DNA of 54,857 nucleotides, taken from contig JBKJPT010000098.1 in assembly GCA_046595075.1 (NCBI GenBank), positions 1-54,857 of the forward strand. Direction: 5' to 3'. This document shows, one piece after another, positions 31,563 to 54,857 of the stretch. The position numbers and the translations under genes are program-made. The notes below the pieces were generated by a model. The model was not told the DNA's origin. It saw only the letters and a list, made by a program, of their open reading frames with translations, and made no database searches. This DNA comes from Flavobacteriales bacterium. GTDB taxonomy: Bacteria > Bacteroidota > Bacteroidia > Flavobacteriales_F > PHOS-HE28. How positions within the stretch are numbered: position 1 is the first letter of the stretch; each line of letters starts with the position of its first letter.

Positions 31563-31572
31563 GGTGTGATCG

Positions 31573-32082
31573 CTATTGTATGCCGAGCTTGGCCTTCACC
31601 AGGGGCATGATGTCCTCGCCCTTGTCGAAGTAGAGCACGAAGCCCGTGCTGGTGTCGAAGATGTAGGTGAAGTTATTGGTGGCCGCCACTTCGTTGATCG
31701 CCGTGTTGGCCTTATCCACCATGGGGCGCAGCAGTTCTTCCTCCTGCTTGGCCAGATCCTCTTGCGCTTTCTCCTGTGCGGCTTTGATGCGGCCTTCGAG
31801 TTCCTGGATCTCGCTCACTGCGCTCTCTTTTTCGGTCTGGGTCATGGCTTCGGCACGAGCTTGCGCTGCGGCAACCTTGGCCTCGTATTCAGCACCCATG
31901 GCCTTCAAACGGTCGTCGAGGGTCTTGGCGAAATCCTGCATGCGCTTTTCAGCGGCGCCACGCTCGGGCAGGGCGAGCATGAGTTGCTGCCGGTCTATGT
32001 GACCGAGCTTGATGGTTTGTTGTGCGCTGGCGGGTGCGAGCGTGGTAAGCGCAAGGGCCGCGGCTATGATGAACTGCTTCAT
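31573..32082 (-). CDS. OmpH/Skp-family periplasmic chaperone
   Basis: Signal peptide, then KLGHIDRQQLMLALPE and a long coiled-coil segment rich in A/E/K/Q. Located downstream of bamA. Confidence 0.85.
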   Translation of the reverse strand: MKQFIIAAALALTTLAPASAQQTIKLGHIDRQQLMLALPERGAAEKRMQDFAKTLDDRLKAMGAEYEAKVAAAQARAEAMTQTEKESAVSEIQELEGRIKAAQEKAQEDLAKQEEELLRPMVDKANTAINEVAATNNFTYIFDTSTGFVLYFDKGEDIMPLVKAKLGIQ

Positions 32083-32096
32083 TGTGTTGATATCAC

Positions 32097-32783: not shown

Positions 32784-32813
32784 CGGGAGGGTGTCGAAAG
32801 TAGGTGATGTGCT

Positions 32814-35351: not shown

Positions 35352-35352
35352 A

Positions 35353-36123: not shown

Positions 36124-36157
36124 AAGGAGCGCGAAGGTCGGTGAACGGCGCGTACGA

Positions 36158-37009
36158 TCAGTGCTTGCGCTTCATCCAGTTGTACTGCTCCTCGCAGTCG
36201 CTGAACTTGCTCATGATGTAGGTGATCGACAGGCCCGAGTACACGTACCAGTCGCGCGTATTGGAATCGCCACGGGCGCGGCCCGCATTAGTTTCGGCCA
36301 AGGCACTGGGATCGGCCAGTTGCGCGGCGAGCGGACCGTTCTCAAAAGCCAGTTGCGCGTTGTCCACGTAAACGCCGCTCACATCGTCGATGTAGTCGGT
36401 GTAGGTGCGGCGCAGACCCCATTCCAGCTGGAAGTCCACGCGGCCTGCGTTCAGTTTCAGACCCGCGCCAAAGGGGATGCAGATCATGTCGCGCGCGTAG
36501 CTCTCACCACCGGCCGAGCTGCCTTGCCCCTCGGTGCCCAGCGGTTGCAGTTCGTACCAGGTATCGTCCAGCTGGGCGTGGGGGTTGAAGTGGAAATAGG
36601 CCAGCCCGCCGAACACGAAGGGGGTCCACTTGCGACCCTCCTTGCCGCGGGTGCGGTACTTGAAGAAGTTGATCTCCAACAGCAACGAGGTTTCTATGAA
36701 CTTGCTACGGAAGTGCAGGCCGCGCAGCAGTTGCAGGGAGTCCTTCGAATCGCCGTCATAGGCCTGCAGCGTGCCGTAAATCCCTTGCAGGCGCAGGGCG
36801 TAGCGGTCGTTGAAGTTGTACCGGTAAACGATCCCGCCCGCCAATTTGGTATCGCGCGGGTAATGGCGGTAAGGGTTCAGGTCGCCGATGTAGTAGCTGG
36901 CGCCTATGGTGCCGCCCAACTCGCTCACCTGTGCAGTTGAAGCAAGGCCGCAGAGGAGGGCAAGGATCAAGAGGTGCCGGCGGTGCATCGGTGGCCTAAC
37001 GTGGGCCAT
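36158..37009 (-). CDS. Outer-membrane beta-barrel-like protein (DUF6089-like)
   Basis: Signal ..LLCGLASTAQV, then alternating beta-strand pattern (GGTIGASYYIGDLNPY.., GGIVYRYNFNDRYALRLQG..). Occupies the conserved Bacteroidota slot between nadK and uppS. An alternative ATG is at 36988. Confidence 0.65.
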   Translation of the reverse strand: MAHVRPPMHRRHLLILALLCGLASTAQVSELGGTIGASYYIGDLNPYRHYPRDTKLAGGIVYRYNFNDRYALRLQGIYGTLQAYDGDSKDSLQLLRGLHFRSKFIETSLLLEINFFKYRTRGKEGRKWTPFVFGGLAYFHFNPHAQLDDTWYELQPLGTEGQGSSAGGESYARDMICIPFGAGLKLNAGRVDFQLEWGLRRTYTDYIDDVSGVYVDNAQLAFENGPLAAQLADPSALAETNAGRARGDSNTRDWYVYSGLSITYIMSKFSDCEEQYNWMKRKH

Positions 37010-37090
37010 TGGTGTATGGTATCCACCGGCGGCCGGGGCCGAAGATATCCGAAGCTCCCGAGGGACCGGAAAGGGCTGGGAACGTGGCCG

Positions 37091-37993
37091 TTAAGGATCG
37101 TGAAAAGGGGTTCCGCTTCCTCCGCTCCTTAAATCCAACCCCCAGTTCAATTTGGTCCTTAGCGTGCGCAGGAAGTCGTGCCCTTCAAGCTGCACCATTT
37201 TCACGGTGAAGGGTGCGCGGCGTATGGTCACGGTGCTTTGCCCGCCGATGGAGGTGCTGCGGGCATCGAGGTTCAGCAGGCAGAGGTCCGTGCGGGCATC
37301 CAGTTGCAGGCGTATGGTGAAGTGATCGGGCACCACGAAGGGGCGCACGTTGAGGTTGTGTGGCGAAATGGGGTTGATCACCAACGCATCGCTGGTAGGG
37401 TATAGCACGGGACCGCCGCAGCTGAGCGAGTAGGCGGTGGATCCGGTGGGCGTGGCAATGATGAGGCCATCGCTCCAATAGGTGTTCAGGTAATCGTTGC
37501 CCAAGTGCACATGCACGCTGATCATGCTGGCGGTATCGCGCTTGTGTATGCTCACCTCGTTCAGCGCGAAGTTGCTCGTGCCCAGTTCCGGCACATCGAT
37601 CACTTCCAGTAGCGAGCGATCCTGCAATGCGTAGCGGCCATCCTTCAACGCGCTCAGGGCGCTGTCCACTTCTTCCAAACGCACGTTGCTGAGAAAGCCC
37701 AGCCGACCCAGGTTGATGCCAAGCACCGGAATGCCCGCGCGGCCCACGAGCGCCACTGTGTCCAGCAAGGTGCCATCTCCGCCGAGGCCTATGCAGAGGT
37801 CGAGGTCCTGCTTGGAGAGGTCACCTTCCGCTAGGACTTTGTCCTGCACGGGAACACCATGCTCGGTGAGCCATTGTGCCAGTGCAGATGTCAGTTGCGG
37901 TTCCAGTCCGGCCTTGCGCATGCTGGCCAGCACGGTGGAGACCACCGGGGCCATGCCGCTCTCCATCCCACGTCCGTTCACCGCTGTGCGCAT
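37091..37993 (-). CDS. nadK: NAD kinase
   Basis: GGDGTLL, NLGRLGFL, and TPTGSTAYSLSCGGPVL. Trimmed to the ATG at 37993 (MRTAVNGRG..), giving about 300 aa. The upstream part of the ORF-track ORF runs through a palindromic repeat. Confidence 0.85.
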   Translation of the reverse strand: MRTAVNGRGMESGMAPVVSTVLASMRKAGLEPQLTSALAQWLTEHGVPVQDKVLAEGDLSKQDLDLCIGLGGDGTLLDTVALVGRAGIPVLGINLGRLGFLSNVRLEEVDSALSALKDGRYALQDRSLLEVIDVPELGTSNFALNEVSIHKRDTASMISVHVHLGNDYLNTYWSDGLIIATPTGSTAYSLSCGGPVLYPTSDALVINPISPHNLNVRPFVVPDHFTIRLQLDARTDLCLLNLDARSTSIGGQSTVTIRRAPFTVKMVQLEGHDFLRTLRTKLNWGLDLRSGGSGTPFHDP

Positions 37994-38010
37994 CGTGCTG
38001 TTCGGGTATT

Positions 38011-38104
38011 CACCACAGAGGCACAGAGACACAGAGTATGACAGCGCCCGATGCCGATAGCGCGCATGAACCATTCTTCTCCGTGTCTCTGTGCCTCTGT
38101 GGTG
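38011..38104. repeat. Perfect 22-bp inverted repeat (REP/MITE-like palindromic element) in the intergenic region upstream of nadK
   Basis: CACCACAGAGGCACAGAGACAC at 38011-38032 is the exact reverse complement of GTGTCTCTGTGCCTCTGTGGTG at 38083-38104. The spacer is 50 nt. The element lies between the stop of the BamA-like gene (38111) and the nadK start (37993). Confidence 0.75.
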
Positions 38105-38110
38105 AGTTCA

Positions 38111-39547
38111 TTAGAAAGGTTGAGTGAAATGTAGGAAGAAGCCGTGCTCGCCCAGCGCGTTGAAGGTGTACTCACCGCGCAGCACTTGATCATAGCTGGT
38201 CACCAGGTCCAGACCGAGGCCGTAGCCGCTCATCCATTCGTTCGCGAGGAAGTTGGCTTCGTGGTAGCGACTGTCCCACACGCGACCGGCATCCACAAAT
38301 AGGTCCAGGTAGAGCGCGAAGTAGAGCGTGCGGAAGGCCTCTATGGGCATGGATTCCACGCGTTGTGAGCGCGGCTTGAAGAGCTGCATGATCACGTTGC
38401 ACTTGCCCAGCGCAAAGCTCTCGCCATCGATCACATAGTACTCGTAGCCACGCACGAAGTTGGAGTAGCCCAGACCTTCCTGCACATAGTAGGGGGGTGT
38501 GCCCCACGTGTGCTTGCCGCGCAAGCTGATCGCGAGGGTAAAGAGCTCGCTCATCTTCCACCAGCGCTTGGTTGTTGCGTAGGCCGTGGCGATGTTAGGT
38601 GCGTTCTTCCCCAGCAGTCCAAGGCCGAGCTGATCGATACGGATCTCCTCATAGTGCCCATCGCGCGGATAGATCTTCATGTCGCGCTTGTCCCACACCA
38701 CCGCGTAGCCGAAGGTGAGGTAACGCGTATTCGTACTCGTGGGTCCGCTGAAGTAGTCCAACGCCGTACGCGTAATGGTGTCGTTCACTTCGGCCTGTGC
38801 GAACCCGAGCCGCCAGTAGTGACGGATGTCGTGGCTGCGGCGCAGGCTCAGCTCAACATCTGCTTTCTGCTCGTTGCGCATGGGGCCAAGGGAACGTTCA
38901 TCGCTCACCAGTATCCGATTGTTACCCACGGTACCCGCTGTCACTTCGGCCTGTTCGGTGTAGCTGCCACCTGCGCTTATGCCCCAACGGTGGTGCCGAT
39001 CGACGTAGGGTACACGGTAGCGCAGTCCGAACTGCTTGGTGTATCCGAACTGCGCTTTGATGTATACCGTCTCGTTGCGTCCGCGGAAATTGTACTTGTA
39101 CAAGTAGGCCCCGAAATTGACGCGGTCGAAGTCCTTGGTGAGCCACCACGTGTTGAAGTTGGGGTCGGCCAGCTGGAATATCGGCGAGGGCCAGATGGTC
39201 CAGCGTTCGTTCACGGTCACTTCCACCACCACATGCTGCATGTCCAGATACAGCGGCAACAACACAACGGTGTTGAAGAGGCTGGTGTTGATGAGGTTCT
39301 GCCTGCTGCGCTCCAACTTTTCCTGAAGGACCGCGCTGCTGAACGAATCGCCTTCCTGCAAAAGCATCTCGCGCAAGATGATGTGGTCCTTGGTGATCTT
39401 GTTGCCGTCGATGGTGATGCCCATGACCTGCACGAACCGCGCAACAGAAGTGCTATCGGCGTTTATGGCGGGCACAGTGACCTGGGCATGCGTGATCGCA
39501 CAACAAAGGATAAAGGGCAATAGAAAGAAGTGGCGGGCCAGGGCCAT
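38111..39547 (-). CDS. BamA/TamA-family outer membrane protein (POTRA plus surface-antigen barrel)
   Basis: Signal ..CAITHAQ. POTRA-like ITIDGNKITKDHIILREMLLQEGDSF. Barrel with C-terminal ..GFFLHFTQPF (terminal Phe). Confidence 0.8.
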   Translation of the reverse strand: MALARHFFLLPFILCCAITHAQVTVPAINADSTSVARFVQVMGITIDGNKITKDHIILREMLLQEGDSFSSAVLQEKLERSRQNLINTSLFNTVVLLPLYLDMQHVVVEVTVNERWTIWPSPIFQLADPNFNTWWLTKDFDRVNFGAYLYKYNFRGRNETVYIKAQFGYTKQFGLRYRVPYVDRHHRWGISAGGSYTEQAEVTAGTVGNNRILVSDERSLGPMRNEQKADVELSLRRSHDIRHYWRLGFAQAEVNDTITRTALDYFSGPTSTNTRYLTFGYAVVWDKRDMKIYPRDGHYEEIRIDQLGLGLLGKNAPNIATAYATTKRWWKMSELFTLAISLRGKHTWGTPPYYVQEGLGYSNFVRGYEYYVIDGESFALGKCNVIMQLFKPRSQRVESMPIEAFRTLYFALYLDLFVDAGRVWDSRYHEANFLANEWMSGYGLGLDLVTSYDQVLRGEYTFNALGEHGFFLHFTQPF

Positions 39548-41796: not shown

Positions 41797-42422
41797 GAGC
41801 CTTCCTCTTCATAGTTGGGTTGATCATTTCATGTGCAGCGATCGCACAAGCCGATACCATGTGGGTTCCCTATCACGGCGGCATGGATCTCCGCGAAGGC
41901 GTGTACCGCGACTTCCATGCTTTCCGAATGAACACGCCTTCGATCCCTCAGGCTAGGTTGCGCGATGATCAAGGTCTGCCCGTGCGCGACATCCGGCAGG
42001 TGTTGAGCAAGCTCTACTACCAACCCGACAGCGGCGGCGTGCAGGCCCTGCGCATGGACCGCATCTGGGGCTTTTGCCACAACGATGTGGTGTACGTAGC
42101 GGCGGGTAACGGCTTTTACCGCATCGGCCTTATGGGTGGCATTGCGCACATGGTGTACGAGCAGAACTACCGGGACTGGGATCCCTACCTCTATGGTTAT
42201 GGTACCGTTACGCGCACGGTGCTTTTGCAACAGATCATCGACATGGAGACCGGTGCCGTGCTGGCTTTCAATGCGTCGGGGATGCACACAGCCATGGAGA
42301 TCGACCCAGTGTTGCAGGAGGAGTTCGATCTGCTTCCGAGGAAACAACGCAATAGCGACGAGGCGCTCTTCCGCTTCCTGCGCATGTTCAACGAGCGGCA
42401 TCCATTGTTGTTGCCGCAGTAG
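41793..42422 (+). CDS. Hypothetical secreted protein
   Basis: ATGA overlap with the upstream gene. Signal-like N-terminus (FLFIVGLIISCAAIAQA). I recognise no family. Confidence 0.5.
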   Translation: MRAFLFIVGLIISCAAIAQADTMWVPYHGGMDLREGVYRDFHAFRMNTPSIPQARLRDDQGLPVRDIRQVLSKLYYQPDSGGVQALRMDRIWGFCHNDVVYVAAGNGFYRIGLMGGIAHMVYEQNYRDWDPYLYGYGTVTRTVLLQQIIDMETGAVLAFNASGMHTAMEIDPVLQEEFDLLPRKQRNSDEALFRFLRMFNERHPLLLPQ

Positions 42423-42489
42423 CTGGCACGATCTTCGACCGGCACGCGCCACGGTCTACTTTCGCCCCGCGTTGCTCCAAGCTCCCACC

Positions 42490-43524
42490 ATGCGCTCCAC
42501 GTTCTTCATCCTGCTCGCTGCTTCTCTCCCCCTTATCGCCTGCGGCCAGGCCAAACAGGAATACGTTCCCGCGCTCGTGGGTTTCTACAACGTGGAGAAC
42601 CTCTACGATACGCTGGACCAAGAGGGCGTTGACGATGCTGAGTTCCTGCCGGGCAGTGCGAAGCAATGGGGCAGTCAACGCTATTGGCACAAGCAGGAGA
42701 AGATGGCCCGTGTGATCGCCAGCATGGGCAAGGACCTGCACCCGCAAGGGCTTGCGATCCTGGGCCTCTCCGAGGTGGAGAACCGTTCGGTGGTGGAGGA
42801 CCTCGTAAGCCGCGAACCGCTGAAAGCGCGTGGCTACAACGTGGTGCACGTTGATGGTCCCGATGTGCGTGGCGTGGACGTGGCGCTGGTATACAACCCG
42901 GCTTTGTACAAAGTCTACGCGCACAAGAGCATTCGACTGCACATGGCCGACACGTCGTTCCGCACGCGCGATCAATTGCTCGTGAGCGGTGTGCTCGACG
43001 GCGACACCGTGCACGTGATCGTGGCGCACTGGCCCAGCCGACGTGGTGGTGAGAAACGCAGTGAACCCAAGCGGAGGGCCGCGGCCGAGCTCGGTCGGCA
43101 CATCATCGATTCGCTGCTCGCGATCAACGCCAACGCGCGCATCATGTACATGGGCGACCTCAACGATGATCCAGTGAACGTGAGCGTGGGTCACTTCCTA
43201 AGAACCAGCGGCGAAAAGGCCAAGGCGGTCAACGGCACCATGTTCAACCCCATGTACGATCCTTACCAAAAGGGCATCGGCACACTGGCCTGGCGCGACT
43301 CATGGAACCTCTTCGATCAGATCGTCGTCTCACCGTCGCTCGTGAGCGGCGCTGGCGGCGCGTACAAGTACTACGGCGTGCGCATCTTCAACGAATCGTA
43401 CCTTCGACAGACGGAGGGCAACTTCGCTGGCTATCCCAACCGCACCTTCGTGGGTGATACGTACCAGGATGGCTACAGTGATCATTACCCGGTGTTCCTG
43501 ATCCTTGTGAAGGAGGTGAAGTGA
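42490..43524 (+). CDS. Endonuclease/exonuclease/phosphatase (EEP) family protein, secreted or lipoprotein
   Basis: Trimmed to the ATG at 42490 (MRSTFFILLAASLPLIACGQ). FYNVENLYD, GLSEVEN, HWPSRRGG, GDLND and SDHYPV are EEP catalytic motifs. Confidence 0.8.
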   Translation: MRSTFFILLAASLPLIACGQAKQEYVPALVGFYNVENLYDTLDQEGVDDAEFLPGSAKQWGSQRYWHKQEKMARVIASMGKDLHPQGLAILGLSEVENRSVVEDLVSREPLKARGYNVVHVDGPDVRGVDVALVYNPALYKVYAHKSIRLHMADTSFRTRDQLLVSGVLDGDTVHVIVAHWPSRRGGEKRSEPKRRAAAELGRHIIDSLLAINANARIMYMGDLNDDPVNVSVGHFLRTSGEKAKAVNGTMFNPMYDPYQKGIGTLAWRDSWNLFDQIVVSPSLVSGAGGAYKYYGVRIFNESYLRQTEGNFAGYPNRTFVGDTYQDGYSDHYPVFLILVKEVK

Positions 43525-43588: not shown

Positions 43589-44920
43589 CTAGCGCTGCAC
43601 CATCACCCGCGCCATGCGCACGCCATCGCTGCTGCGCAGTGCGAGCGTGTAAAGGCCGTTGGTCAGTTCATCAAGGGAGAGCACATTGCTCGCGAGCGAT
43701 CCGCTCTTCGCCACACGCCCGGTTGCATCCACCAGCGTGTACTCCACACGACCGTTGATCGCGCCGAGATCCATGCGGATGATGTCATTGGCAGGGTTGG
43801 GGTAGAAACCGATCGTTGCAATGTTCGCTTCGCCAATGCCGGATCCCACGGCGATATCCGCTAGGAAGCGCGGCTCGATCTTGCGCTCGGCGAAGGTGAA
43901 TGTGAGCACGCCCGTTACGCTGTAGTAGTTGCCCACCACGGGTGTGTATAGGTACATGAGGTCATCGACCAGGATGGATCCCGCCGTGTTGCTCGTGCCG
44001 GTCCATTGGTTGTTGCCATCCAATCCTGTTGTGCAACCGATGTCCACCAACATTGCGAGCACACCTTCCCACTGCTCGTCCTGCGCGGCGGCCGGGGTCA
44101 GCATTTCAGGGGCGGGTACCGGGTGTTGTCCTTCCACCACCACGTTGCTCACAGCGGTCAACTCAGTAAGCCCTTGGTATTCGCTCACGGTGGCTTGCAA
44201 GGTCACGCTGTCGCCGATGTTCACCACGGATACCGCATCGAAACAGTAGATGCCGCTCCAAGGGCCGGTACCGGCCTGGATGAAGTACGAGTTGGCGCCG
44301 AGCGTATCCACACCCGTTACAATGCCGCCGGTCGTGATGATCTGGCCGAGCAGGGGCGAGTTGCCACTGACGTCGGCCGTGTATTGTATCTCGTATACGC
44401 TCGCAGTCACGGGCGCACCACCACCGGTGATGCTCACGTCGTCCAACACCAAATGCTCGGGGCCTCCAGTGCTTTGCACGCTGAGGATGAATTCCGCAGT
44501 TGCGAAATCCATGGCGGCGGCGATCTGCTGCGTCACTTCCGTCCACGTGTTGCCCGTGCTGTTGTAGTAGGCGTTGTAGCTGGAGTATCCGCTGCCGGTG
44601 GGGCGGTTATCGTACAAGCCCGTGCGGATGTTGCCTTGACCACGCACCCAAAAGCTGATGGTGTAAATGGTGCCGTTGGTAACAGCTGTGGGCTGCGTGG
44701 TGAAGCGCTTGTGAGTGGTGGTGCTGTTCTGCAGGCGTGCAGCGTATGCGCCACCGTGCACATTGGTGCTCACTTGGATCACGCTATCCGCGTTAAGGGT
44801 GGTCTTGCTGCCCATCCAATCGGAGGGTACGGTATCGGGCCAGTTCTCGAAGCCGCTGGCAAATTGGGCGCTCGCTGCTGTGGTGGCGAAAAGGACGAGG
44901 GAGAGTAATGCTGTTCTCAT
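43589..44920 (-). CDS. Secreted T9SS-sorted protein: jelly-roll-like N-terminal domain plus an OB-fold-like region resembling the N-terminus of ExeM/NucH extracellular nucleases
   Basis: Signal ..TAASAQ. VYEIQYTADVSGNSPLLGQIITTGGIVTG...GDSVTLQATVSEYQGLTELT resembles the nuclease-associated OB region. The tail FYPNPANDIIRMDL..YTLVDATGRV..NGLYTLAL is Por_Secre_tail-like. Confidence 0.7.
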   Translation of the reverse strand: MRTALLSLVLFATTAASAQFASGFENWPDTVPSDWMGSKTTLNADSVIQVSTNVHGGAYAARLQNSTTTHKRFTTQPTAVTNGTIYTISFWVRGQGNIRTGLYDNRPTGSGYSSYNAYYNSTGNTWTEVTQQIAAAMDFATAEFILSVQSTGGPEHLVLDDVSITGGGAPVTASVYEIQYTADVSGNSPLLGQIITTGGIVTGVDTLGANSYFIQAGTGPWSGIYCFDAVSVVNIGDSVTLQATVSEYQGLTELTAVSNVVVEGQHPVPAPEMLTPAAAQDEQWEGVLAMLVDIGCTTGLDGNNQWTGTSNTAGSILVDDLMYLYTPVVGNYYSVTGVLTFTFAERKIEPRFLADIAVGSGIGEANIATIGFYPNPANDIIRMDLGAINGRVEYTLVDATGRVAKSGSLASNVLSLDELTNGLYTLALRSSDGVRMARVMVQR

Positions 44921-44945
44921 GTGCGTTTGGTATGGAAGGATGCTG

Positions 44946-46238
44946 TTACTGGATCACCACATCATCGATGCGGAAGTTGGTGGTTTCGCCATTGGGGTCG
45001 CTACCGGTGTATTTGAACCCGATCACGAAGCTGCCGGTGTAACCGGGAGGAAGCACGGTGCTGAGGTCGATGTTGCCGCTCGGCACCCATACCTGATCGG
45101 CGGTGCTTGGTGTTGCATAGGCGCATGGTACAGGAGCCCAGTTCGCGGTCGCTAGGTTGATGAGGGTGTAGTTGGTGCTGATGAAGAGGCCGAAGGGATC
45201 ATGGGTTGGCACTCCGAAACCACGTTGTGACCGGAAGTTCAAGGTCATGCCAGGAACATAGGTGGTAGGGGGAGTGACGAACCAAGCCACTTCGGTGGCG
45301 TTGCTGCTGCCATAAGCCGTGGCTTGTGCACACAGGTCGCTACTTACCGAATAACCGCGCCAGTAGCGGCTACCTGTTTGCGGTCTGTTGCTCCAGCAAG
45401 TGAGGTTGATGTCGATGTTCGCAGTGGTGGTGGCGAAGCTCTCGTTCACACCCGTGCCGGGCGCGCACAACGTCGGGCATTCTTGGCCCGCGCAACGCGG
45501 TCCGTTCATGTTGACCTCACCAAGACTGCGGTTGCTTAGCTGTATCGTGCTGCCGAAGATGCCCGCGATGCATAGTATCGAACCCTTGCCCATTGGCAAT
45601 ACCTGGCCTGCGTAGCTGGCATATCCGCTTGTGCGCACCATCACCGGCGTCAAACTACAATCCTCCACATAGCGCTCGCCGGTGGCTTGGTTGGCTGCAT
45701 CTGCCCAAGTGACACCGTTGCATGCATCCGTTAATGTGAATTCCACATCGTTCAATTGGATCAGCATGCTCTGGATGGTATCCAACGCCGCTGGGGTCAA
45801 TTGTGCGATGGTGCGCACCAGCGGCTCCACGTGAACGAGGGTGGCTTGCTTCACTGTGTTGTTGTCCACATCCACGCTGTCCAGTTGCATCAACCCGTTG
45901 TAAGGCGAAAGCACAGTGCCGGGCAGGTAAATGCGAATGCTATCACCGACATACAGACCGCCGCTGTTCAGCAAGCGCAAGGTGATGCCACCCGTGTGGT
46001 CCTGCACGCTGATGTTCTTGTAGAAGTTGCCATCGTTCTCATCCGAAGTCACCACGGCATACACGCTCTTCGCTTCAGAGAAGTGCACTGCCGTACCGGT
46101 CCACAGGTCCTTCAGTTGTGCTACGGTGAGGATATCGCCCACGGGCAATGTCCGCTCCGGCGGTGTATCCAGTTCCTTTTCGCAGGAAACGCCCAGCGCG
46201 GCGATGGCGGTAAGTAGAAGGAGGTTGCGCATGTTCAT
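44946..46238 (-). CDS. DUF5689-like lipoprotein with a C-terminal choice-of-anchor-J-like domain
   Basis: Lipobox ALGVSCEK. ILTVAQLKDLW..VYAVVTSDENDGNFYKNISVQDHTGGITLRL..GDSIRIYL..LSPYNGLMQL is DUF5689-type. C-terminal ..WFVTPP..LNFRSQ..GFKYTG..FRIDDVVIQ. Lies immediately downstream of a TonB receptor. Confidence 0.7.
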   Translation of the reverse strand: MNMRNLLLLTAIAALGVSCEKELDTPPERTLPVGDILTVAQLKDLWTGTAVHFSEAKSVYAVVTSDENDGNFYKNISVQDHTGGITLRLLNSGGLYVGDSIRIYLPGTVLSPYNGLMQLDSVDVDNNTVKQATLVHVEPLVRTIAQLTPAALDTIQSMLIQLNDVEFTLTDACNGVTWADAANQATGERYVEDCSLTPVMVRTSGYASYAGQVLPMGKGSILCIAGIFGSTIQLSNRSLGEVNMNGPRCAGQECPTLCAPGTGVNESFATTTANIDINLTCWSNRPQTGSRYWRGYSVSSDLCAQATAYGSSNATEVAWFVTPPTTYVPGMTLNFRSQRGFGVPTHDPFGLFISTNYTLINLATANWAPVPCAYATPSTADQVWVPSGNIDLSTVLPPGYTGSFVIGFKYTGSDPNGETTNFRIDDVVIQ

Positions 46239-46253
46239 GTCTTGTCGGAGTGC

Positions 46254-48800
46254 TTAGAAGCTGAAGGTCACCATGGCGAAGTAGGTACGACCGAAGAGGT
46301 AGCTGTACTTGGGTGGAAAACGGTCGGGCTGCATGCTGTCGTAGCGCAGTTGTTCGAAACCACCCACTTTGAATTCCTGGTTGTCCAGCACGTTGCTCAC
46401 TGATAGGTTGAGCGCAATGCGGTATTTGCGTTGGATCATCCACGATTTGCCGGCGTAGAGGTCCACGGTGTACTGGTCGTCCAGCCTCGTTTGGTCCAGC
46501 AGCGCATCCCATTGGGGATCGTTGGTCACCAGGTCCGCCACTGCTTCGGAGGTGCGGCGATCGGGATTAGGGTCCAGGTAGATGTCGCCGAACCAGTTCG
46601 CATTGAAACCGGCGAACCAGAATTTCGGTGAGTTGTACTTGAGCCCTAGCGACGCAGCGCTCTGCGGCATGCCGCCCACACGATAACCTTTCCAATAGAT
46701 CGTGCGGTCCGCGCCAAAGACCTCATTGCTGTTATTGCGCGTGATGGTGGCAACGGGACGTGAATCGTAGGTGTAGTTGCCACCTGCGTAAACAGCGGTA
46801 AGCACCCACGTGCTGGTGAGGTTGGCCTCTACACCGAGTTCCACGCCGCTATGCACCTGGTCCACACCTGTCATGGCGTAGTTCACAATGGTGAGATACT
46901 CCTCGTGGTAGTAGCTGCGATTCCAGATCTGGTCGGCAATGCGCGTGTAGTAGAGCGTGGCGCGGCCTTTCAGTCGCGGTGCGCGCACGATGTAGCTGAT
47001 GTCTCCGCTCATGGCGTTCTCCGTGGTGATGCCTGGGATCACGGCATCGCGCACACGCGGAGAGAGGAATGAAGTATTGGCAGCTGGCGGGCGCACGATG
47101 TACGCTGCGTTGGCGCCAATGAAGTGCCGACCAGTGAGCTTGTAGAGGGCACCAGTCTTCAGGCCGTACCCGAAGAAGTTGTTCTTCTCGCCTTCGCCCT
47201 CCGAGTCATCGGGAAAGCGGCCGTTCTGCACACGGCCATTGCGCCAGAAGCTGGTGTGCGAAAGATCGATGCCCGCGTACACTTCCATGCGCGTCCACTT
47301 GTGTTCCACTTGTGCGAACACGTTCGCGTAGCGAGTGTGTATGTCGTAGTCCCAGCCGAAGACGTCACCTTCCTCTACTAACTTGTTCGTAACGCTCAGG
47401 TCGTTCTGTGCAACCTGGCTATCCGGGAAATCACGATCGGCGAACTGGTCGATGTCCACCCAGAAGTCGCCACCGAGCAGATCGTCCACCACCTTGAAAT
47501 AGTGCGTGCGCTGCTTGTGCGCGCTGCCGCCGATAGTGAGCTGTGTTTCGGGCTTCAATGCTTTGGTCCAAACGCTGTTCACCCCGAAGCGGGTTGGATC
47601 CGCCCGCATTTCCTCCACAATATACTTGCTGCGGTTGCCCGTGATGGTGTTGCCGCTGATGCCGTTGGCATCCTGCACGCTGTAGAGGTTCTTGCCATTA
47701 GCGAGGTAGAGCTGGTCCCAATCGATCTGGCTGGTGCTCGTGTTGCCCCATGCCGCCAAGCGTTCATTGTAGAGTTCGGGGTTTTCGCTGCGGTAATAGC
47801 TCGGGAGGTAGCGGTAGTAATCGGGGCGTGGATCCTTCGCATCGAACCAATTGAGACCTGTGAGGCCGTCGCGACCAAAGGTGTAATAGGCGCTGGTGGT
47901 GAGCTTGGCCGTCTCGCTGACTTTGAAGGTGTGCGCCAACAGGATCATCGGCTTGTGATCGTGGCTCATTTTGGCGTTGCGCTTCTCGCCGTTCTGCAAA
48001 CCCCAATTGGGGTTGTAGAAGGAGTTTCCGGTAAGGTCATAGGCCTCCTGCACCGCGAGCGCCTGGCGCCCTTGGCGAATGGTGGCTCCGAAGCCGCTGA
48101 GGCTTATGGTATGCCGGTCGTTGATCTTCTTTTCTGCAGCGAGGTAATACGAGTATGCGTTGAAGGGTGTGCCTTCTACATACCCTTCATCGGCCCAACG
48201 GCGTGAACCGCTGATCGCAAAGGCCCAGCCCTTGGCGTTCATGCCCGTGGCGTAGGTGAACATGAGCCGGTTACGGTAGGCGCGGTTCGCCGAAGCAAAG
48301 GATGTACGCACGCCCTTGCGCAACGAACTTGCTTGTATGTTCAGGTCCGTGGCACCGCCGATGCTACCGAAGTTGATCCGGCTTGCCCCGATCCCTGTGC
48401 GCACCTGCATCCACCGCGTTACATCATTAAGGCCCGCCCAGTTGCTCCAACTGGCCCAGCCCGTTTCGAAGTCGTTCACGAGCACACCATTGATGCTCAC
48501 CAAGGTGTTCTCACTGTCGTATCCCCGTATGCGGAAGCGTGCCTGACCGAAATTGAATCCGGCCACAGAGGTGAACACATCGCGGCTGCTCTGCAGGAGC
48601 CCGCTGATGTCCTGGTTACCCAGTTCGCCATCGAGGTCGTCCGTCGTGAGGGTGAAGACCGGCAATCGCGGGTTGTTCTTCGTGTCGGATGTGTCAGCCT
48701 GTGGAGCGTTCAGCAGGGTATCGGACTGGGCCGCGCCCACCATTGGCAATAAAGCGATGAAGCCTACGAGTAAGGGGTGCTTTGCGTTCCTATGCGCCAT
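46254..48800 (-). CDS. TonB-dependent receptor
   Basis: Signal ..MVGAAQS. Plug-type sequence: DISGLLQSSRDVFTSVAGFNFGQARFRIRGYDSENTLVSINGVLVND. Large barrel ending ..YFAMVTFSF (terminal Phe). Confidence 0.9.
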   Translation of the reverse strand: MAHRNAKHPLLVGFIALLPMVGAAQSDTLLNAPQADTSDTKNNPRLPVFTLTTDDLDGELGNQDISGLLQSSRDVFTSVAGFNFGQARFRIRGYDSENTLVSINGVLVNDFETGWASWSNWAGLNDVTRWMQVRTGIGASRINFGSIGGATDLNIQASSLRKGVRTSFASANRAYRNRLMFTYATGMNAKGWAFAISGSRRWADEGYVEGTPFNAYSYYLAAEKKINDRHTISLSGFGATIRQGRQALAVQEAYDLTGNSFYNPNWGLQNGEKRNAKMSHDHKPMILLAHTFKVSETAKLTTSAYYTFGRDGLTGLNWFDAKDPRPDYYRYLPSYYRSENPELYNERLAAWGNTSTSQIDWDQLYLANGKNLYSVQDANGISGNTITGNRSKYIVEEMRADPTRFGVNSVWTKALKPETQLTIGGSAHKQRTHYFKVVDDLLGGDFWVDIDQFADRDFPDSQVAQNDLSVTNKLVEEGDVFGWDYDIHTRYANVFAQVEHKWTRMEVYAGIDLSHTSFWRNGRVQNGRFPDDSEGEGEKNNFFGYGLKTGALYKLTGRHFIGANAAYIVRPPAANTSFLSPRVRDAVIPGITTENAMSGDISYIVRAPRLKGRATLYYTRIADQIWNRSYYHEEYLTIVNYAMTGVDQVHSGVELGVEANLTSTWVLTAVYAGGNYTYDSRPVATITRNNSNEVFGADRTIYWKGYRVGGMPQSAASLGLKYNSPKFWFAGFNANWFGDIYLDPNPDRRTSEAVADLVTNDPQWDALLDQTRLDDQYTVDLYAGKSWMIQRKYRIALNLSVSNVLDNQEFKVGGFEQLRYDSMQPDRFPPKYSYLFGRTYFAMVTFSF

Positions 48801-48898
48801 GCGAGCGGTTTCGGTTGGGGAGCTTTCGATGGCTACCCATCGGGATCGCGTTGTGGTAAGCAGGCGCGGGCCGGAGGAGAGCGGTTATTCGGGGAGCG

Positions 48899-48906
48899 CA
48901 AAAGTA
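48899..48906 (-). promoter_or_regulatory. Candidate -7 promoter element for the TonB receptor / DUF5689 operon
   Basis: The minus strand reads TACTTTTG, a perfect TAnnTTTG, about 98 nt upstream of the ATG at 48800. No convincing -33 TTTG at the canonical spacing. Motif match only. Confidence 0.25.
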
Positions 48907-49034
48907 GGATCGTGGGCCATGCCGCCTCCATCACCGGGATGTTAATTGAAAGGGAGGGTCAGGCGCCTTTGCAAATGGCCTTAGGAAGCCATTGTTGACA
49001 GGTACGTAACGTGCTGAAGCGGAACGAGTTTGAA

Positions 49035-49042
49035 TACATTTG
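49035..49042 (+). promoter_or_regulatory. Candidate -7 promoter element for the giant repeat-protein gene
   Basis: TACATTTG, a perfect TAnnTTTG, ends 16 nt before the ATG at 49059. No clear -33 element. Motif match only. Confidence 0.25.
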
Positions 49043-49058
49043 CCGGTCGCTCCGGTAC

Positions 49059-52000
49059 ATGCCTTCCAAGCCCTGCAGCCCGTTGCCGTCACAGGCGGTT
49101 TTCAACATTCGCTCACTGCGGCGTGCGTTGCTATGGTGCGCTTTGGCATTTGCTTCGACCTCGGCCCGTGCTGATCACTACTCTGGCGCCAACATCACCT
49201 ACGAGTGTGTGGGCCCTAACCAGTACCGGATCACGCTCGATCTATACCTTGACTGTTCAGGGGCGGGCATCACCCCACAGAGCCTGAACTTCAGCAACAA
49301 CTGCGGCGTGTCTTTCACGCTGAACAACCTGCCGATGACCCTCAACGAGGAGGTGTCGCAGCTATGCGCAGCACAGTTGGTGAACAGCACCTGCAATGGC
49401 GGTTTCGAGCCAGGCATCCAGCACTATCAGTTCCAGACGACACTCGTGCTTTCACCCTGCAACGCGTGGACGATCGGCTGGAGCATCTGCTGCCGTAATA
49501 CCACCAACAACGTACAACTCACGCCGGGCATGTACGTACAGGCCACGCTCAACAATCTGGGCGGTTTGTGTGACGACTCCCCCACGTTCGGGGACAACAC
49601 GATCCCGTACGTGTGTGTGAACGAACCTGTGAACTACAACCCACAGGTCATCGACCCCGACGGCAACACGCTGGTGTACTCGCTGATCGGGGCCCGTTAC
49701 GCATCCCCGCTGCCTGCACCAGTGCTTTACACGGGTGGCTTTTCCGGTGCCATCCCCATACCCGGCATCGTGTTCGATCCCGCCACGGGGCAAATGGATT
49801 TCACACCTACACTGATCGGCAACTACGTGGTCGTCGTTCAAGTGGCTTCGTACAACTCCTCCGGTGTGTTGATCGGCACGGTGATGCGCGATTTCCTCTT
49901 CGTGGTGATCGATTGCACGAACCCACCTGCTGACAATCTCGGCCCCACGAACATCACGAACGGGATCATCACCAGTAGCAACGGCATCGAAGTATGCGAA
50001 GGGGTGCCATTCTGTGTGGACATCAGCTTCTCGGATATCGATCCAGCGGCGGTGATCACACTTACCGGTGCGATCACCGGACAGCTTCCGGGCTCGTCCC
50101 TGAACTTCTCCGGTACCAATCCGGCGGTGGCTACTATCTGCTGGACACCCGACATCACCCTTTCGCCAATATCGATCCTGCTCGGGGTGAGCGACAACGC
50201 ATGCCCGATCCCGAACCTCTCCTCATACCCGCTCACAATTACTGTGGTGGATCCGCCGCCGGTGCCTCCCGATCCCGGGACACCGACCAGCATCAATAGT
50301 TGCACCAACTCGCCCAATATCAACCTATTCAACCAACTGGGAGGAACACCTGACGTTGGTGGCAATTGGACAGGCCCCAATGGAGCTGCACATTCTGGCA
50401 TCTTCATTCCTTCTGCCGATCTGTTCGGTGTATACACCTACACAGTGGGCACGGGCTGCCTAAATGCTTCGGCAACGGTAACGATCACGCAGACCGTCTC
50501 GCCGAACGCAGGCATCAACGCGTCGTTCAGCACCTGCGGCAACAGCGCCAGTACCAACATGTTGACCCTCCTTGGTGGCACAGCCCAAGCGGGGGGGGCG
50601 TGGAGCGGTCCTAGCGCGGTGTCGGGCAACCTGTACGATCCGGCTACCATGACCCCGGGCGTGTACACATACACGGTAACAGGTACGCCACCCTGCGCAA
50701 ACGCGACTGCTACGGTGACCGTTGCCGAAAGCGTAGCCCCCAACGCAGGCGTCAACGCCTCCCTCACGTTGTGCAGCAACAGCGCTGCCACGAGCATGTT
50801 CGCACAACTTGGTGGTGGCGCGCAAGTCGGTGGTACATGGAGCGGCCCAAGTCCTGTGGGGGGTTCTAGCAACTACAATCCGGCTACCATGAACCCCGGG
50901 GTGTACACCTACACGATCACCGGCGTGGCACCATGCGTGAATGCGACAGCCACAGTGACGGTGACGGAGAATGCTGCCGTGAGTGCAGGTAGCAATGGCA
51001 ATCTGGCTACCTGTTCCAACGCCTTACCTGTAGCGTTGTACGCGAGCCTCGGGGGCACGCCCAATGCCGGTGGTGCTTGGAGCGGACCCAGCCCTGTGGT
51101 TGGTGGCATGTACGATCCAGCGACGATGACCGCCGGAGTGTACACCTATACGGTTACTGGCACAGCACCGTGCGCGAACTCCAACGCCACGGTCACGGTG
51201 GTGGAGAATGTTGCGCCGAATGCTGGAACCAATGGCAACTTGAATATATGTAGTACAGCTGCGGCAGTGAGCTTGCTCGCCCAACTCGGTGGAGGACCAG
51301 CAGCAGGCGGCACATGGAGCGGTCCAAGTCCGGTGGGTGGCGCGGGCAACTACAACCCGGCTACCATGACCCCCGGGGTGTACACCTATACGATCACCGG
51401 TTTGGCGCCTTGTACCAACTCCACGGCGACCGTCACTGTGGCCGAAACAGCTGTGGCCAGCGCTGGTTCCAACGGTAACCTCACGATCTGCGCGAACGGT
51501 GCAGCGGTTGCGATGAGTGCAAGCCTTGGCGGAACACCGGCCGCTGGCGGCGCCTGGAGCGGGCCTTCACCAGTCGTCGGGGGTAGTTATGATCCCGCAA
51601 CGATGATCGCCGGTGTGTACACCTATACCGTAACAGGCACGGCGCCCTGCCCGAACGCATCAGCAACGGTGACGGTAGTAGAGAACCCGCCTCCGAACGC
51701 GGGAACCAATGGCAGCCTCACTATTTGCAGCAATGCAGCATCTACAAGTTTGATCGCACAACTAGGTGGGGGGCCAGCTGCTGGCGGCACATGGAGTGGC
51801 CCAAGCCCAGTGGGTGGTGCGGGCAACTACAACCCGGCAACGATGAACCCTGGCGTGTACACTTACACACTCGTTGGCATTGCGCCGTGCAGCAATTCCA
51901 CTGCAACGGTCACTGTAACGGAGAACGCACCACCCGTTGCTGGTTCGAACGGCAATCTGGCGACATGCGCTAACGGCGCCTCTGTTGCATTGATCACCGG

Positions 52001-54857
52001 CCTTGGTGGAACACCAGATGCTGGCGGCGCATGGAGCGGACCATCGCCAGTTGTTGGTGGCAACTACGATCCCTCGACGATGCTCGCCGGTGTTTACACC
52101 TACACCGTAGCGGGTGTTGCGCCATGCGCTAACGCCACAGCAACTGTGACGGTGACAGAGAGCGCACCAACGAACGCGGGAACGAACGGCATGCTCACGT
52201 TGTGCAGCAACAGCGCAACAACAGGCATGTTCGCGCAACTTGGCGGTGGCCCGCAAGCGGGCGGCGCATGGAGTGGACCTAGCCCAGTTGGTGGTACGGG
52301 CAACTACAACCCGGCAACGATGAACCCTGGCGTGTACACCTACACGGTCACAGGAGTTGCGCCTTGTGCGAACGCAACGGCCACGGTAACGGTGACAGAG
52401 AACAACGCTCCCGTTGCAGGCTCGAACGGGACGCTCACCGTGTGCGCGAATGGCGCTGCTGTTACGCTTAGCACCGGCTTGGGCGGAGCGCCCGATGCTG
52501 GCGGCGCGTGGAGTGGACCGTCACCTGTTGGTGGAGGTAATTACGATCCCGCGACGATGCTCGCCGGTATTTACACTTACACGGTAACAGGTGTTGCGCC
52601 TTGCACCAACGCAACGGCAACGGTAACGGTCACGGAGAACGCACCAACGAACGCCGGAACGAACGGCACGCTCACATTGTGTAGCAATAGCGCAACAACA
52701 AGCATGTTCGCGCAGCTCGGTGGCGGCCCTCAAGCTGGTGGCGCATGGAGCGGGCCCAGCCCAGTCGTTGGGGGCAATTACGATCCCGCCACAATGGTCG
52801 CTGGTGTTTATACCTACACCGTTACGGGTGTTGCGCCATGCGCGAACTCAAGCGCAACGTTGACGGTGACAGAGAATGCCGCGACCAATGCAGGCACGAA
52901 CGGGACGCTCACCGTTTGCAGCAATAATGCAGCGGTGAGCCTATCCGCACAGCTCGGTGGTGCGCCACAAGCAGGTGGTGCTTGGAGCGGACCCTCGCCT
53001 GTTGTTGGAGGTATTTACGATCCCGCAACGATGACTGCCGGGGTTTATACATACACCATTATTGGCGCGGCGCCATGCGCGAACGCGAATGCAACGGTTA
53101 CGGTCACCGAGAGCATTGCGACTGACGCAGGTAGCAATGGAACGCTCACGGTGTGCAGCAATAGTGCAACCGCAGGTCTCTTGGCGCAATTGGGCGGTGC
53201 ACCCCAAGCAGGTGGTGCATGGAGCGGACCCAGCCCAGTTGTTGGGGGCAATTACGATCCCACGACGATGATCGCCGGAGTTTACACGTACACGGTTGCG
53301 GGCGTCGATCCTTGCGGGAATTCAAGTGCTACTGTAGCGGTCACGGAGAACATCGCTGCGAACTCCGGCACCAATGGCACACTCACTATTTGTTCCAGCA
53401 ATGCTGCTGCTTCGCTCTTTGCACAGCTCGGAGGCGCGCCGCAGGCAGGTGGTGCGTGGAGCGGCCCAAGCCCTGTTGTTGGCGGCAACTACGATCCCGC
53501 GACGATGAGCGCCGGTGTGTATACGTACACGATCACCGGAGTAGCACCATGCGTGAATTCAAGTGCAACGGTTACCGTTACCGAGAACACCGCCGCGAGC
53601 GCAGGTTCCAACGGAACGTTGACGGTGTGCAGTAATGGGGTTGTGGTGGCGTTGAACAGCGCCCTTGGCGGTGCCCCGGATCCTGGCGGCGCTTGGAGCG
53701 GGCCTTCGCCTGTTGTGGGTGGAAACTACGATCCCGTTACGATGGTCGCTGGCGTGTACACATACTCGGTTGCAGGCATTGATCCGTGCGTGAACGCGAC
53801 AGCAACCGTGACTGTAACGGAGTACGCTGCAACGAATGCAGGTGTAAACGGATCGGTTTTGCTTTGTTCCAGCGATGCCGTGATCTCGCTCTTTGCGCAA
53901 CTCGGTGGTGCCCCCCAGGGCGGTGGTGCCTGGAGCGGCCCCAGTCCTGTTGTCGGTGGCAACTACGACCCCGCGACGATGACAGCTGGAGTGTACACGT
54001 ATACAATAACTGGAGTAGCGCCTTGCGCGAATGCTACAGCAAACGTTACGGTCACGGAGAACACAGCAACGAACGCAGGCACTAATGGCTCGGTCACCGT
54101 GTGCGACATCGGTGGTGCGGTGAACATCTTCAACCAGCTCGGCGGTGGCCCAACCGCTGGTGGTGCTTGGAGCGGTCCTTCTCCTGTGGTCGGCAACAAC
54201 TATGATCCGGCGACAATGAGTCCCGGCGTTTACACATACACAGTAGCGGGTGTAGCGCCGTGCACGAACGCGACTGCAACAGTGACTGTGAACGAAACAA
54301 GTTCGCCCAACGCAGGAAGCAATGGGAACGTGACGGTCTGTGGCAACGGCGCGATCACCGATCTGTTCACCGTCCTCGGCGGCGCACCGCAAGTAGGCGG
54401 CACCTGGAGCGGACCGAGTGCGATCGTCGGTGGTAACTACGATCCGGCGACAATGAACCCCGGCGTGTATACGTACACGCTCACTGCCACGCTGCCTTGC
54501 GTGAGTGCAAGTGCTACGGTGACAGTGACGGAGAACGCAGCAACGAACGCAGGCACTAATGGCTCGGTCACCGTGTGCGACATCGGTGGTGCGGTGAACC
54601 TCTTCAACCAGCTCGGCGGTGGCCCAACCGCTGGTGGTGCTTGGAGCGGTCCTAGTCCTGTGGTGGGCAATAGCTATGATCCGGCCACGATGAGCCCCGG
54701 TGTTTACACCTACACGGTTGCGGGTGTAGCGCCCTGCGCGAACGCAAGTGCAACAGTGACTGTGAACGAAACGAGTTCGCCCAACGCAGGAAGCAATGGG
54801 AACGTGACGGTCTGTGGCAACGGCGCGATCACCGATCTGTTCACCGTCCTCGGCGGC
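49059..54857 (+). CDS. Giant secreted cell-surface repeat protein (adhesin-like). 3' end lies beyond the window; at least 1933 codons are seen.
   Basis: Not in the supplied ORF track. My translation of the frame containing 49059 has no stop from 48999 to the last base of the window, and 49059-54857 is exactly 1933 codons. It begins MPSKPCSPLPSQAVFNIRSLRRALLWCALAFASTSARA/DHYSGANITYECVGPNQYRITLDLYLDCSG.., i.e. a signal peptide and a Cys-rich domain including SPCNAWTIGWSICCRN. Next comes a DPDGNTLVYSL cadherin/Ig-like segment, then 19 tandem 79-80 aa repeats. None of the + strand ORFs listed in this interval is in this frame. Confidence 0.85.
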   Translation, partial: MPSKPCSPLPSQAVFNIRSLRRALLWCALAFASTSARADHYSGANITYECVGPNQYRITLDLYLDCSGAGITPQSLNFSNNCGVSFTLNNLPMTLNEEVSQLCAAQLVNSTCNGGFEPGIQHYQFQTTLVLSPCNAWTIGWSICCRNTTNNVQLTPGMYVQATLNNLGGLCDDSPTFGDNTIPYVCVNEPVNYNPQVIDPDGNTLVYSLIGARYASPLPAPVLYTGGFSGAIPIPGIVFDPATGQMDFTPTLIGNYVVVVQVASYNSSGVLIGTVMRDFLFVVIDCTNPPADNLGPTNITNGIITSSNGIEVCEGVPFCVDISFSDIDPAAVITLTGAITGQLPGSSLNFSGTNPAVATICWTPDITLSPISILLGVSDNACPIPNLSSYPLTITVVDPPPVPPDPGTPTSINSCTNSPNINLFNQLGGTPDVGGNWTGPNGAAHSGIFIPSADLFGVYTYTVGTGCLNASATVTITQTVSPNAGINASFSTCGNSASTNMLTLLGGTAQAGGAWSGPSAVSGNLYDPATMTPGVYTYTVTGTPPCANATATVTVAESVAPNAGVNASLTLCSNSAATSMFAQLGGGAQVGGTWSGPSPVGGSSNYNPATMNPGVYTYTITGVAPCVNATATVTVTENAAVSAGSNGNLATCSNALPVALYASLGGTPNAGGAWSGPSPVVGGMYDPATMTAGVYTYTVTGTAPCANSNATVTVVENVAPNAGTNGNLNICSTAAAVSLLAQLGGGPAAGGTWSGPSPVGGAGNYNPATMTPGVYTYTITGLAPCTNSTATVTVAETAVASAGSNGNLTICANGAAVAMSASLGGTPAAGGAWSGPSPVVGGSYDPATMIAGVYTYTVTGTAPCPNASATVTVVENPPPNAGTNGSLTICSNAASTSLIAQLGGGPAAGGTWSGPSPVGGAGNYNPATMNPGVYTYTLVGIAPCSNSTATVTVTENAPPVAGSNGNLATCANGASVALITGLGGTPDAGGAWSGPSPVVGGNYDPSTMLAGVYTYTVAGVAPCANATATVTVTESAPTNAGTNGMLTLCSNSATTGMFAQLGGGPQAGGAWSGPSPVGGTGNYNPATMNPGVYTYTVTGVAPCANATATVTVTENNAPVAGSNGTLTVCANGAAVTLSTGLGGAPDAGGAWSGPSPVGGGNYDPATMLAGIYTYTVTGVAPCTNATATVTVTENAPTNAGTNGTLTLCSNSATTSMFAQLGGGPQAGGAWSGPSPVVGGNYDPATMVAGVYTYTVTGVAPCANSSATLTVTENAATNAGTNGTLTVCSNNAAVSLSAQLGGAPQAGGAWSGPSPVVGGIYDPATMTAGVYTYTIIGAAPCANANATVTVTESIATDAGSNGTLTVCSNSATAGLLAQLGGAPQAGGAWSGPSPVVGGNYDPTTMIAGVYTYTVAGVDPCGNSSATVAVTENIAANSGTNGTLTICSSNAAASLFAQLGGAPQAGGAWSGPSPVVGGNYDPATMSAGVYTYTITGVAPCVNSSATVTVTENTAASAGSNGTLTVCSNGVVVALNSALGGAPDPGGAWSGPSPVVGGNYDPVTMVAGVYTYSVAGIDPCVNATATVTVTEYAATNAGVNGSVLLCSSDAVISLFAQLGGAPQGGGAWSGPSPVVGGNYDPATMTAGVYTYTITGVAPCANATANVTVTENTATNAGTNGSVTVCDIGGAVNIFNQLGGGPTAGGAWSGPSPVVGNNYDPATMSPGVYTYTVAGVAPCTNATATVTVNETSSPNAGSNGNVTVCGNGAITDLFTVLGGAPQVGGTWSGPSAIVGGNYDPATMNPGVYTYTLTATLPCVSASATVTVTENAATNAGTNGSVTVCDIGGAVNLFNQLGGGPTAGGAWSGPSPVVGNSYDPATMSPGVYTYTVAGVAPCANASATVTVNETSSPNAGSNGNVTVCGNGAITDLFTVLGG
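50271..54857 (+). repeat. Coding tandem repeat array, unit 237/240 nt (79-80 aa); about 19 units, cut off by the window end
   Basis: Consensus unit: NAG.NG.L..C.N.A....L...LGG.P.AGG.WSGPSPV.GG.YDPATM..GVYTYTVTG.APC.N..ATVTV.E. I counted 19 G[VI]YTY[TS] motifs. The periodic spacing of the antisense ORF-track entries (for example 51146, 51623, 52100; then 53045, 53282; then 53726, 53963) mirrors the 237/477-nt periodicity. Confidence 0.9.

Follow-up and report, generated by a model that had tools for sequence, protein, structure and literature searches.

Documented pairs of cargo protein and anchor in type IX secretion systems (T9SS) include SprB-SprF and PG1035-PorP-PorE (PMC9143113), SprF being the carrier that anchors SprB (PMC12635249). 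GhpA of Aureispira sp. CCB-QB1, which is paired with GhpB/C, is a T9SS substrate of 5898 amino acids (aa) whose 52 immunoglobulin (Ig)-like repeats build a 240-nm hook; it has conserved cysteines, disulfides between neighbouring domains and a distinct distal N-terminal module, its stem is heptameric and hollow, the protein is heavily glycosylated, and ghpB/C, which encode homologues of PorP and PorE, lie downstream (10.1101/2024.01.29.577165). Here, we describe a gene at the end of a 54,857-nt contig (JBKJPT010000098.1; hereafter the window, meaning this whole stretch of DNA) from an uncultured Flavobacteriales bacterium of ~60% GC. We propose that positions 49059-54857 are the 5' part of a gene for a giant, T9SS-exported, outer-membrane-anchored fibrillar adhesin, a reading to which we give a probability of roughly 80%.

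The predicted protein most likely falls within T9SS type B cargo as a broad class (TIGR04131 / CHU_C PF13585). It shares with this class the Bacteroidota host, the Sec signal peptide and a huge all-beta repeat body, and its orthologues and family members end in PKD and CHU_C domains; it differs in that its N-terminal head and its 79-aa repeat unit have no curated model, and in that its own sorting domain lies beyond the window. Proteins of this kind are well known and common in Bacteroidota, and complete relatives are already annotated in generic terms, whereas the head and the unit are domain families that have not been modelled. An earlier, sequence-only reading of the window had likened the N-terminal region to very large gliding/T9SS surface proteins of Bacteroidota, and this class assignment agrees with our findings: the homologues all come from metagenome-assembled genomes (MAGs) of Flavobacteriales or Bacteroidota, and complete syntenic orthologues carry the PKD and CHU_C ending.

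Coding status and architecture of the giant gene

The frame that contains position 49059 is free of stop codons from 48999 to the last base of the window (54857), a run of 1953 codons, while the other five frames hold between 19 and 92 stops each over the same interval. From the regional base composition, such an open frame is expected by chance with p ~1e-28. Translation from the ATG at 49059 gives a product of 1933 aa that runs off the window end. The sequence-only reading had claimed both the stop-free frame and its absence from stop-delimited lists of open reading frames (ORFs), and both claims are borne out: the ORF track at 49059-54857 shows only short out-of-frame and antisense ORFs, because the lister leaves out any ORF that is still open where its source ends. 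The same reading had named an overlooked in-frame stop or frameshift, or a lack of synonymous bias between repeat units, as findings that would argue against a gene. We find no stop in the 1953 codons, and the repeats are clearly coding: among the 14 units of exactly 79 aa, pairwise differences at codon positions 1, 2 and 3 amount to 0.23, 0.19 and 0.59, and the median ratio of nonsynonymous to synonymous substitution (dN/dS) is 0.13, with synonymous sites near saturation. The interval 49059-54857 is a real gene under purifying selection. Long antisense ORFs are also present inside the repeats, on the minus strand at 49452-54392 (for example 53559-54392, 277 aa), with open stretches of up to 432 codons; these are by-products of GC-rich, codon-biased repeats and not genes.

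A signal peptide, a Cys-rich N-terminal region of roughly 400 aa and at least 19 tandem modules had been recognized by eye, and they correspond to aa 1-38, to aa 39-405 with 15 cysteines and to 19 complete units, all encoded on the plus strand. The start codon and the putative Sec signal peptide (49059-49172) were read directly from the translation: a basic n-region and the hydrophobic stretch ALLWCALAFAST are followed by ARA|DH, read by eye, with cleavage after ARA. Homologues share this layout, with a mature protein that begins ADH. As judged from the translation, the protein thus has the N-terminal Sec signal peptide of a T9SS type B substrate.

The head (49173-50273) is 367 aa long, and its 15 conserved cysteines make up 4.1% of its residues. 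An AlphaFold2 model based on an 88-sequence alignment is all-beta (pLDDT, the predicted local distance difference test, 90.9; pTM, the predicted template modelling score, 0.82) and contains three beta-sandwich sub-domains, Ig/cadherin-like, with rough bounds at 49173-49577, 49578-49922 and 49923-50273. Foldseek against the PDB matched this model to generic tandem Ig/cadherin arrays only (E ~1e-6), a head profile gave nothing significant against PDB sequences, and the head found nothing above threshold in Pfam and NCBIfam. Its 203 homologues are nearly all unnamed 'hypothetical proteins' of Flavobacteriales MAGs.

The head also occurs in short paralogues of ~545-560 aa from the mature N-terminus, which consist of the head and a C-terminal region of ~170 aa and have no units. 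At least eight MAGs contain a short and a long paralogue together (short/long pairs L071/L001, L057/L017, L068/L010, L044/L004, L050/L008, L036/L005, L039/L006 and L070/L011); the window has the long one only. In some short paralogues only, the C-terminus reaches the type A sorting domain model, near its threshold, and for this reason we dropped a strict rule by which short paralogues would be type A and long ones type B. The head seems to be deployed both near the cell, in the short paralogue, and on a long stalk.

In the stalk, 19 complete units, each 78-80 aa long, occupy 50274-54785; a 20th follows (54786-54857), of which the window includes the first 24 aa while the gene runs on. Every complete unit has two invariant cysteines and the motif GGxWSGPS...YDPATM..GVYTYTV.G.APC, just as described earlier for modules of 79-80 aa. 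Unit 1 (50274-50507; 78 aa) is divergent and 46% identical to unit 11, and units 2-19 (50508-54785) are Ig-like modules of 79-80 aa. Units 3, 5, 7 and 9 are 80 aa long (...GGxGNYNP...), and every unit from 10 to 19 has 79 aa. The periods detected by Tandem Repeats Finder are 237 and 474/477 nt, with 69-76% matches, and the 477-nt double period arises because 80-aa and 79-aa unit types alternate in units 3-10. At the end of the window (54075-54857) two units have been duplicated recently, units 17-18 (54075-54548) being repeated as unit 19 and the partial unit 20 (54549-54857); units 17 and 19 are 92% identical in DNA, compared with a median of 65% for other pairs. Since the DNA identity between units is otherwise only ~65%, the array is old and can be assembled, and since the number of units among relatives ranges from 10 to 44, the array expands and contracts.

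Structure prediction for two or three consecutive units had been proposed with the sequence-only reading, and AlphaFold2 confidently models units 10-12 (42 sequences) as three small Ig-like beads in a row (pLDDT 96.7, pTM 0.80). The top Foldseek matches of this model in the PDB are seven GhpA fragments (9g8b, 9flu, 9flv, 9flw, 9flx, 9fls and 9fly; E 1e-6 to 1e-5, 14-19% identity), and the Ig arrays of titin, NCAM and contactin rank closely behind. Among 2529 units of 176 proteins, loss of a cysteine is rare (~3%) and shows no association within or between units. By analogy with described Ig-like stalks, the stalk is probably stapled by disulfides. The head has an uneven number of cysteines (15), and the PKD tail of L003 begins with an NAGTC motif; both hint at a staggered pattern, in which C63 of one unit would pair with C10 of the next, as opposed to C10-C63 inside a unit.

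No named repeat family had come to mind for the module in the sequence-only reading, and profile searches of Pfam and NCBIfam likewise contain no model for the unit or the head: the whole protein, one unit and two units all gave nothing above threshold. NCBIfam matches to PRK15446 and Lsa66, far under their cut-offs, were set aside as compositional noise. The best Pfam match of the window protein is K319L-like_PKD, which is sub-threshold (E 0.011; 16.1 bits against a cut-off of 27), and the unit profile found nothing significant among PDB sequences, with a KIAA0319L chain at E 0.019. The unit resembles PKD and K319L-like PKD domains (PF22352, PF18911) in being a small beta-sandwich of similar size, and the module region of one Marivirga protein (P0323) sums to 99.5 bits for K319L-like_PKD. 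However, the window protein stays under every curated threshold, and the two-Cys pattern together with the GGxWSGPS...GVYTYTV motif is specific to the 79-aa module.

When 1.84 billion proteins were searched with a profile of the 19 units, 3168 cluster representatives matched at E<=0.001 and 654 did so at E<=1e-30; a single protein of 6321 aa has up to 61 copies of the module. Fragments are also present in Flavobacterium piscinae. The module usually precedes CHU_C and stands behind varied N-terminal parts, such as DUF7948 with beta-propeller repeats (P0258) or the SprB repeats of P0323. The 79-aa module is a general, so far unmodelled building block of Bacteroidota T9SS giants. Two domain families could therefore be defined, the module with its 3168 protein clusters (E<=0.001) and the head with more than 200 proteins, neither of which has a Pfam or NCBIfam model.

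The composition of the stalk is unusual in its basic residues. Over its 1528 aa (aa 406-1933; 50274-54857) it contains no Lys and no Arg, and the head (aa 39-405) has no Lys and four Arg, against a background of 3.4% Lys and 6.4% Arg in nine other proteins of the window. In complete relatives (L003, L033, L046, L048, L063 and L067), whose stalks reach 2341 aa, the stalk contains no Lys and between zero and three Arg, while the C-terminal 300 aa, which hold the PKD and sorting domains, have a normal content of both. Across 175 module proteins we counted 420 Lys and 663 Arg in 192,226 module residues (0.56%), and 75 of these proteins have none. The depletion may make the protein resistant to trypsin-like proteases, may keep it away from the anionic cell surface by repulsion, or may reflect some constraint during translocation. 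No relevant paper emerged from a literature search for surface proteins that lack Lys and Arg. The Bacteroidota O-glycosylation motif D(S/T)(A/I/L/V/M/T) is absent from the 1933 aa. A stalk that lacks Lys and Arg would also be missed by standard trypsin proteomics.

Complete relatives and the probable C-terminus

Where does the gene end? Neither a search of metagenome contigs with the exact 50-mer 54738-54787 nor an exact-protein look-up of two neighbouring genes gave a match that would extend the window. We therefore turn to related loci. A scan of GTDB species representatives, based on a head alignment of 16 sequences, found 80 loci. Their sources are without exception uncultured Flavobacteriales or Bacteroidota, and the nearest locus is 81% identical in the head. 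Six of the loci (L001-L004, L007 and L017) are orthologous to the window locus, because the same three upstream genes are kept there in order and orientation.

Long paralogues consist of the head, 10-44 units and a conserved tail of ~300 aa ending in ...G(H/S)V(T/S/M)(L/V)xR. Twelve loci end in this tail, and all of these have 10-29 units except L079, which has none; L080 has 37 units before the full tail, and frameshifted nanopore loci have 35-44 units before the same tail. The intact orthologue L003 measures 2920 aa from its mature N-terminus and has 29 units, and its tail matches PKD_4 (5.7e-9) and CHU_C PF13585 (39.4 bits, cut-off 27). In P0231, a member of the same family with 2871 aa, Pfam shows PKD_4 and CHU_C only, the latter at 52.2 bits against the same cut-off of 27. 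When units are matched by type, the last units of the window correspond approximately to unit 19-20 of 37 in L017 and to unit 20-28 of 36 in L001. Judging from these relatives, the full protein is probably ~3000-3500 aa long, with an array of about 29-44 units followed by PKD and a CHU_C / T9SS type B sorting domain. The 1933 codons in the window would then be the 5' part of the gene, perhaps half to two-thirds of it.

In MAGs assembled from nanopore reads, the giant genes carry frameshifts, after which the units continue in another frame (L001, L002, L004, L007, L009, L010, L012, L017, L054 and L072), and public annotations split them into many 'hypothetical protein' fragments, for example P0121-P0230. 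These frameshifts are probably sequencing errors and do not mark pseudogenes. Most relatives in the databases are fragments of this kind or contig ends, again labelled 'hypothetical protein'. Genes like the one described here are systematically lost or fragmented by stop-delimited ORF finders and by short-read MAGs.

A probable fibrillar adhesin compared with SprB and GhpA

How could such a protein reach and hold its place on the cell? Following the type B cargo systems SprB-SprF, PG1035-PorP and GhpA-GhpB/C, Sec would carry the giant protein to the periplasm, where T9SS would recognize its C-terminal domain and move the protein out by way of the outer-membrane translocon. Retention on the cell would fall to a PorP/SprF-like outer-membrane protein whose gene would lie elsewhere in the genome. 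In this arrangement the C-terminus would be the membrane-proximal end, and the head, at the tip of the stalk, could act as an adhesin. The stalk is acidic and free of basic residues, and would be ~100-150 nm long; the GhpA hook, with 52 repeats in 240 nm, leads us to estimate ~4 nm per Ig-like domain, so that 30-40 units would span more than 100 nm. These bacteria come from activated-sludge and freshwater metagenomes, and by analogy a head at the distal end of a ~100-nm fibril could plausibly help them to attach to flocs or to make contact with other cells.

Several observations weigh against the adhesin proposal. The window ends before the sorting domain and the stop codon, and partner genes, if any, are likewise outside it; the predicted C-terminus is borrowed from orthologues that are 66-81% identical in the head. 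On the L003 tail, TIGR04131 scores 33.1 bits, just below its cut-off of 35. A PorP/SprF- or PorE-like gene stands beside the giant gene in none of the 23 long loci, which instead have a family 2 glycosyltransferase (GT2) gene and pyrC, and PorP_SprF matches none of the 24 window ORFs scanned, although a partner elsewhere in the genome is possible. Finally, the adhesive function, the stalk length and the disulfide stapling are argued by analogy with other systems.

Could the protein instead be a mobile gliding adhesin of the SprB type, which rides on an SprF-like carrier and propels the cell as it is pulled along the helical gliding track? SprB of Flavobacterium johnsoniae (6497 aa) offers a likeness: it forms a giant surface fibril, its repeats are Ig-like, it has a type B sorting domain, and SprF is its PorP-like holder. 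Some Cytophagia giants combine the 79-aa module with SprB repeats; in the Marivirga protein P0323 the module stands together with Pfam SprB repeats. The NCBI name of complete relatives, 'gliding motility-associated C-terminal domain-containing protein', points the same way, but this name reflects the C-terminal domain only. The window protein is about half the size of SprB and has a different N-terminal head. It has no match to the SprB repeat (PF13573), either as a whole (E<=1) or in pieces, even at E<=10. The sprB gene lies in an sprCDBF operon. No operon of this type with sprF downstream was found at the orthologous loci, where GT2 and pyrC lie downstream and the upstream gene is divergent, and an sprF-like gene is absent downstream in the 23 related loci. 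Without SprB repeats and without an sprF neighbour, the window protein is outside the SprB family, and we consider a gliding role of this kind possible but improbable.

A second alternative, which we regard as doubtful, is a long appendage of an undescribed type in activated-sludge Flavobacteriales, with a ligand-binding head at its tip and a protease-proof, disulfide-stapled stalk, serving in floc attachment or prey capture. In such an appendage the stalk might be multimeric in the manner of GhpA, and the GT2 encoded downstream, which is conserved, might modify it.

A closer parallel to GhpA would be a rigid, multimeric appendage in which parallel chains form a hollow stalk and the Cys-rich heads catch cells or particles. 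GhpA, too, is a T9SS substrate that has tens of Ig-like repeats and inter-domain disulfides, and both stalks are built of tandem Ig-like domains, with the seven GhpA fragments as the best PDB matches of the unit model. Nonetheless, titin, NCAM and contactin score almost equally, so that the match is to a generic fold, and a search of PDB sequences with the unit profile found no GhpA chain at E<=1. The family of the window protein also differs in its surroundings and its sequence: PorP/PorE homologues, which GhpA has downstream as ghpB/C, are absent from that position, and the O-glycosylation motif is lacking, whereas GhpA is heavily glycosylated. Having neither sequence similarity to GhpA nor ghpB/C neighbours, the window protein is outside the GhpA family, and we think an appendage of this build quite unlikely.

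It is hardly credible that the stretch is non-functional, be it a decaying pseudogene, a non-coding tandem repeat open by chance in GC-rich DNA or a misassembled repeat: the antisense stretches of up to 432 codons do show that GC-rich repeats can stay open by chance, and many database relatives are fragmented, but the coding frame runs through 1953 codons without a stop while the other frames have 19-92 each, selection on it is strongly purifying, units that are only ~65% identical in DNA make collapse or misassembly unlikely, the order of unit types roughly matches that in orthologues, and the fragmentation of relatives is accounted for by short-read contig ends and by nanopore frameshifts, past which the repeats go on in another frame.

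Upstream region and neighbouring genes

The 258-nt intergenic region upstream of the giant gene (48801-49058) was searched for the Bacteroidota -7 promoter pattern, the consensus of which is TAnnTTTG. A candidate promoter, TACATTTG, matches this consensus at 49035-49042 on the plus strand, with its end 17 nt ahead of the ATG; chance alone would give ~0.06 matches per strand in this region. The minus strand has another match, at 48906, directed towards the divergent gene. A scan for sigma-70-type promoters and terminators upstream of the giant gene found nothing, and nor did tRNA and Rfam scans of the window.

Downstream of the giant gene, GT2 is present in all 23 of the long loci that reach far enough (among them L001-L004, L012, L016, L031, L033-L035, L040, L042, L046, L048, L058, L059, L063 and L067), and pyrC comes next in most. 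The enzyme is of the polyprenyl-phosphate type, encoded by an ORF of 238-278 codons, and at 70-91% identity it is more conserved than the head of the giant protein. This linkage may be functional, for instance through glycosylation of the fibril, or may merely be conserved gene order.

On the other side, a divergent cluster on the minus strand (43589-48800) encodes a TonB-dependent receptor (Plug), a DUF5689/choice-of-anchor J lipoprotein and a CBM_4_9 and ExeM/NucH-like protein with a T9SS type A domain. Six related MAGs keep these three genes in synteny with the giant gene, and a gene for an Exo_endo_phos_3 enzyme (42136-43524, plus strand) adjoins the cluster, which looks like an extracellular nucleic-acid or polymer uptake locus. 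Core T9SS genes were not found within the window; a type A sorting domain encoded by the gene at 43589-44920 (TIGR04183, 30.7 bits, cut-off 23) suggests that the organism uses T9SS.

Further upstream, at 30744-39547, the window contains an outer-membrane biogenesis neighbourhood with a BamA-like gene (32814-35525, with POTRA domains) and an OmpH-like gene (32097-32783), together with genes for glutamate racemase (30744-31562), a DUF6089 protein, NAD kinase and a second Omp85/POTRA protein (38111-39547).

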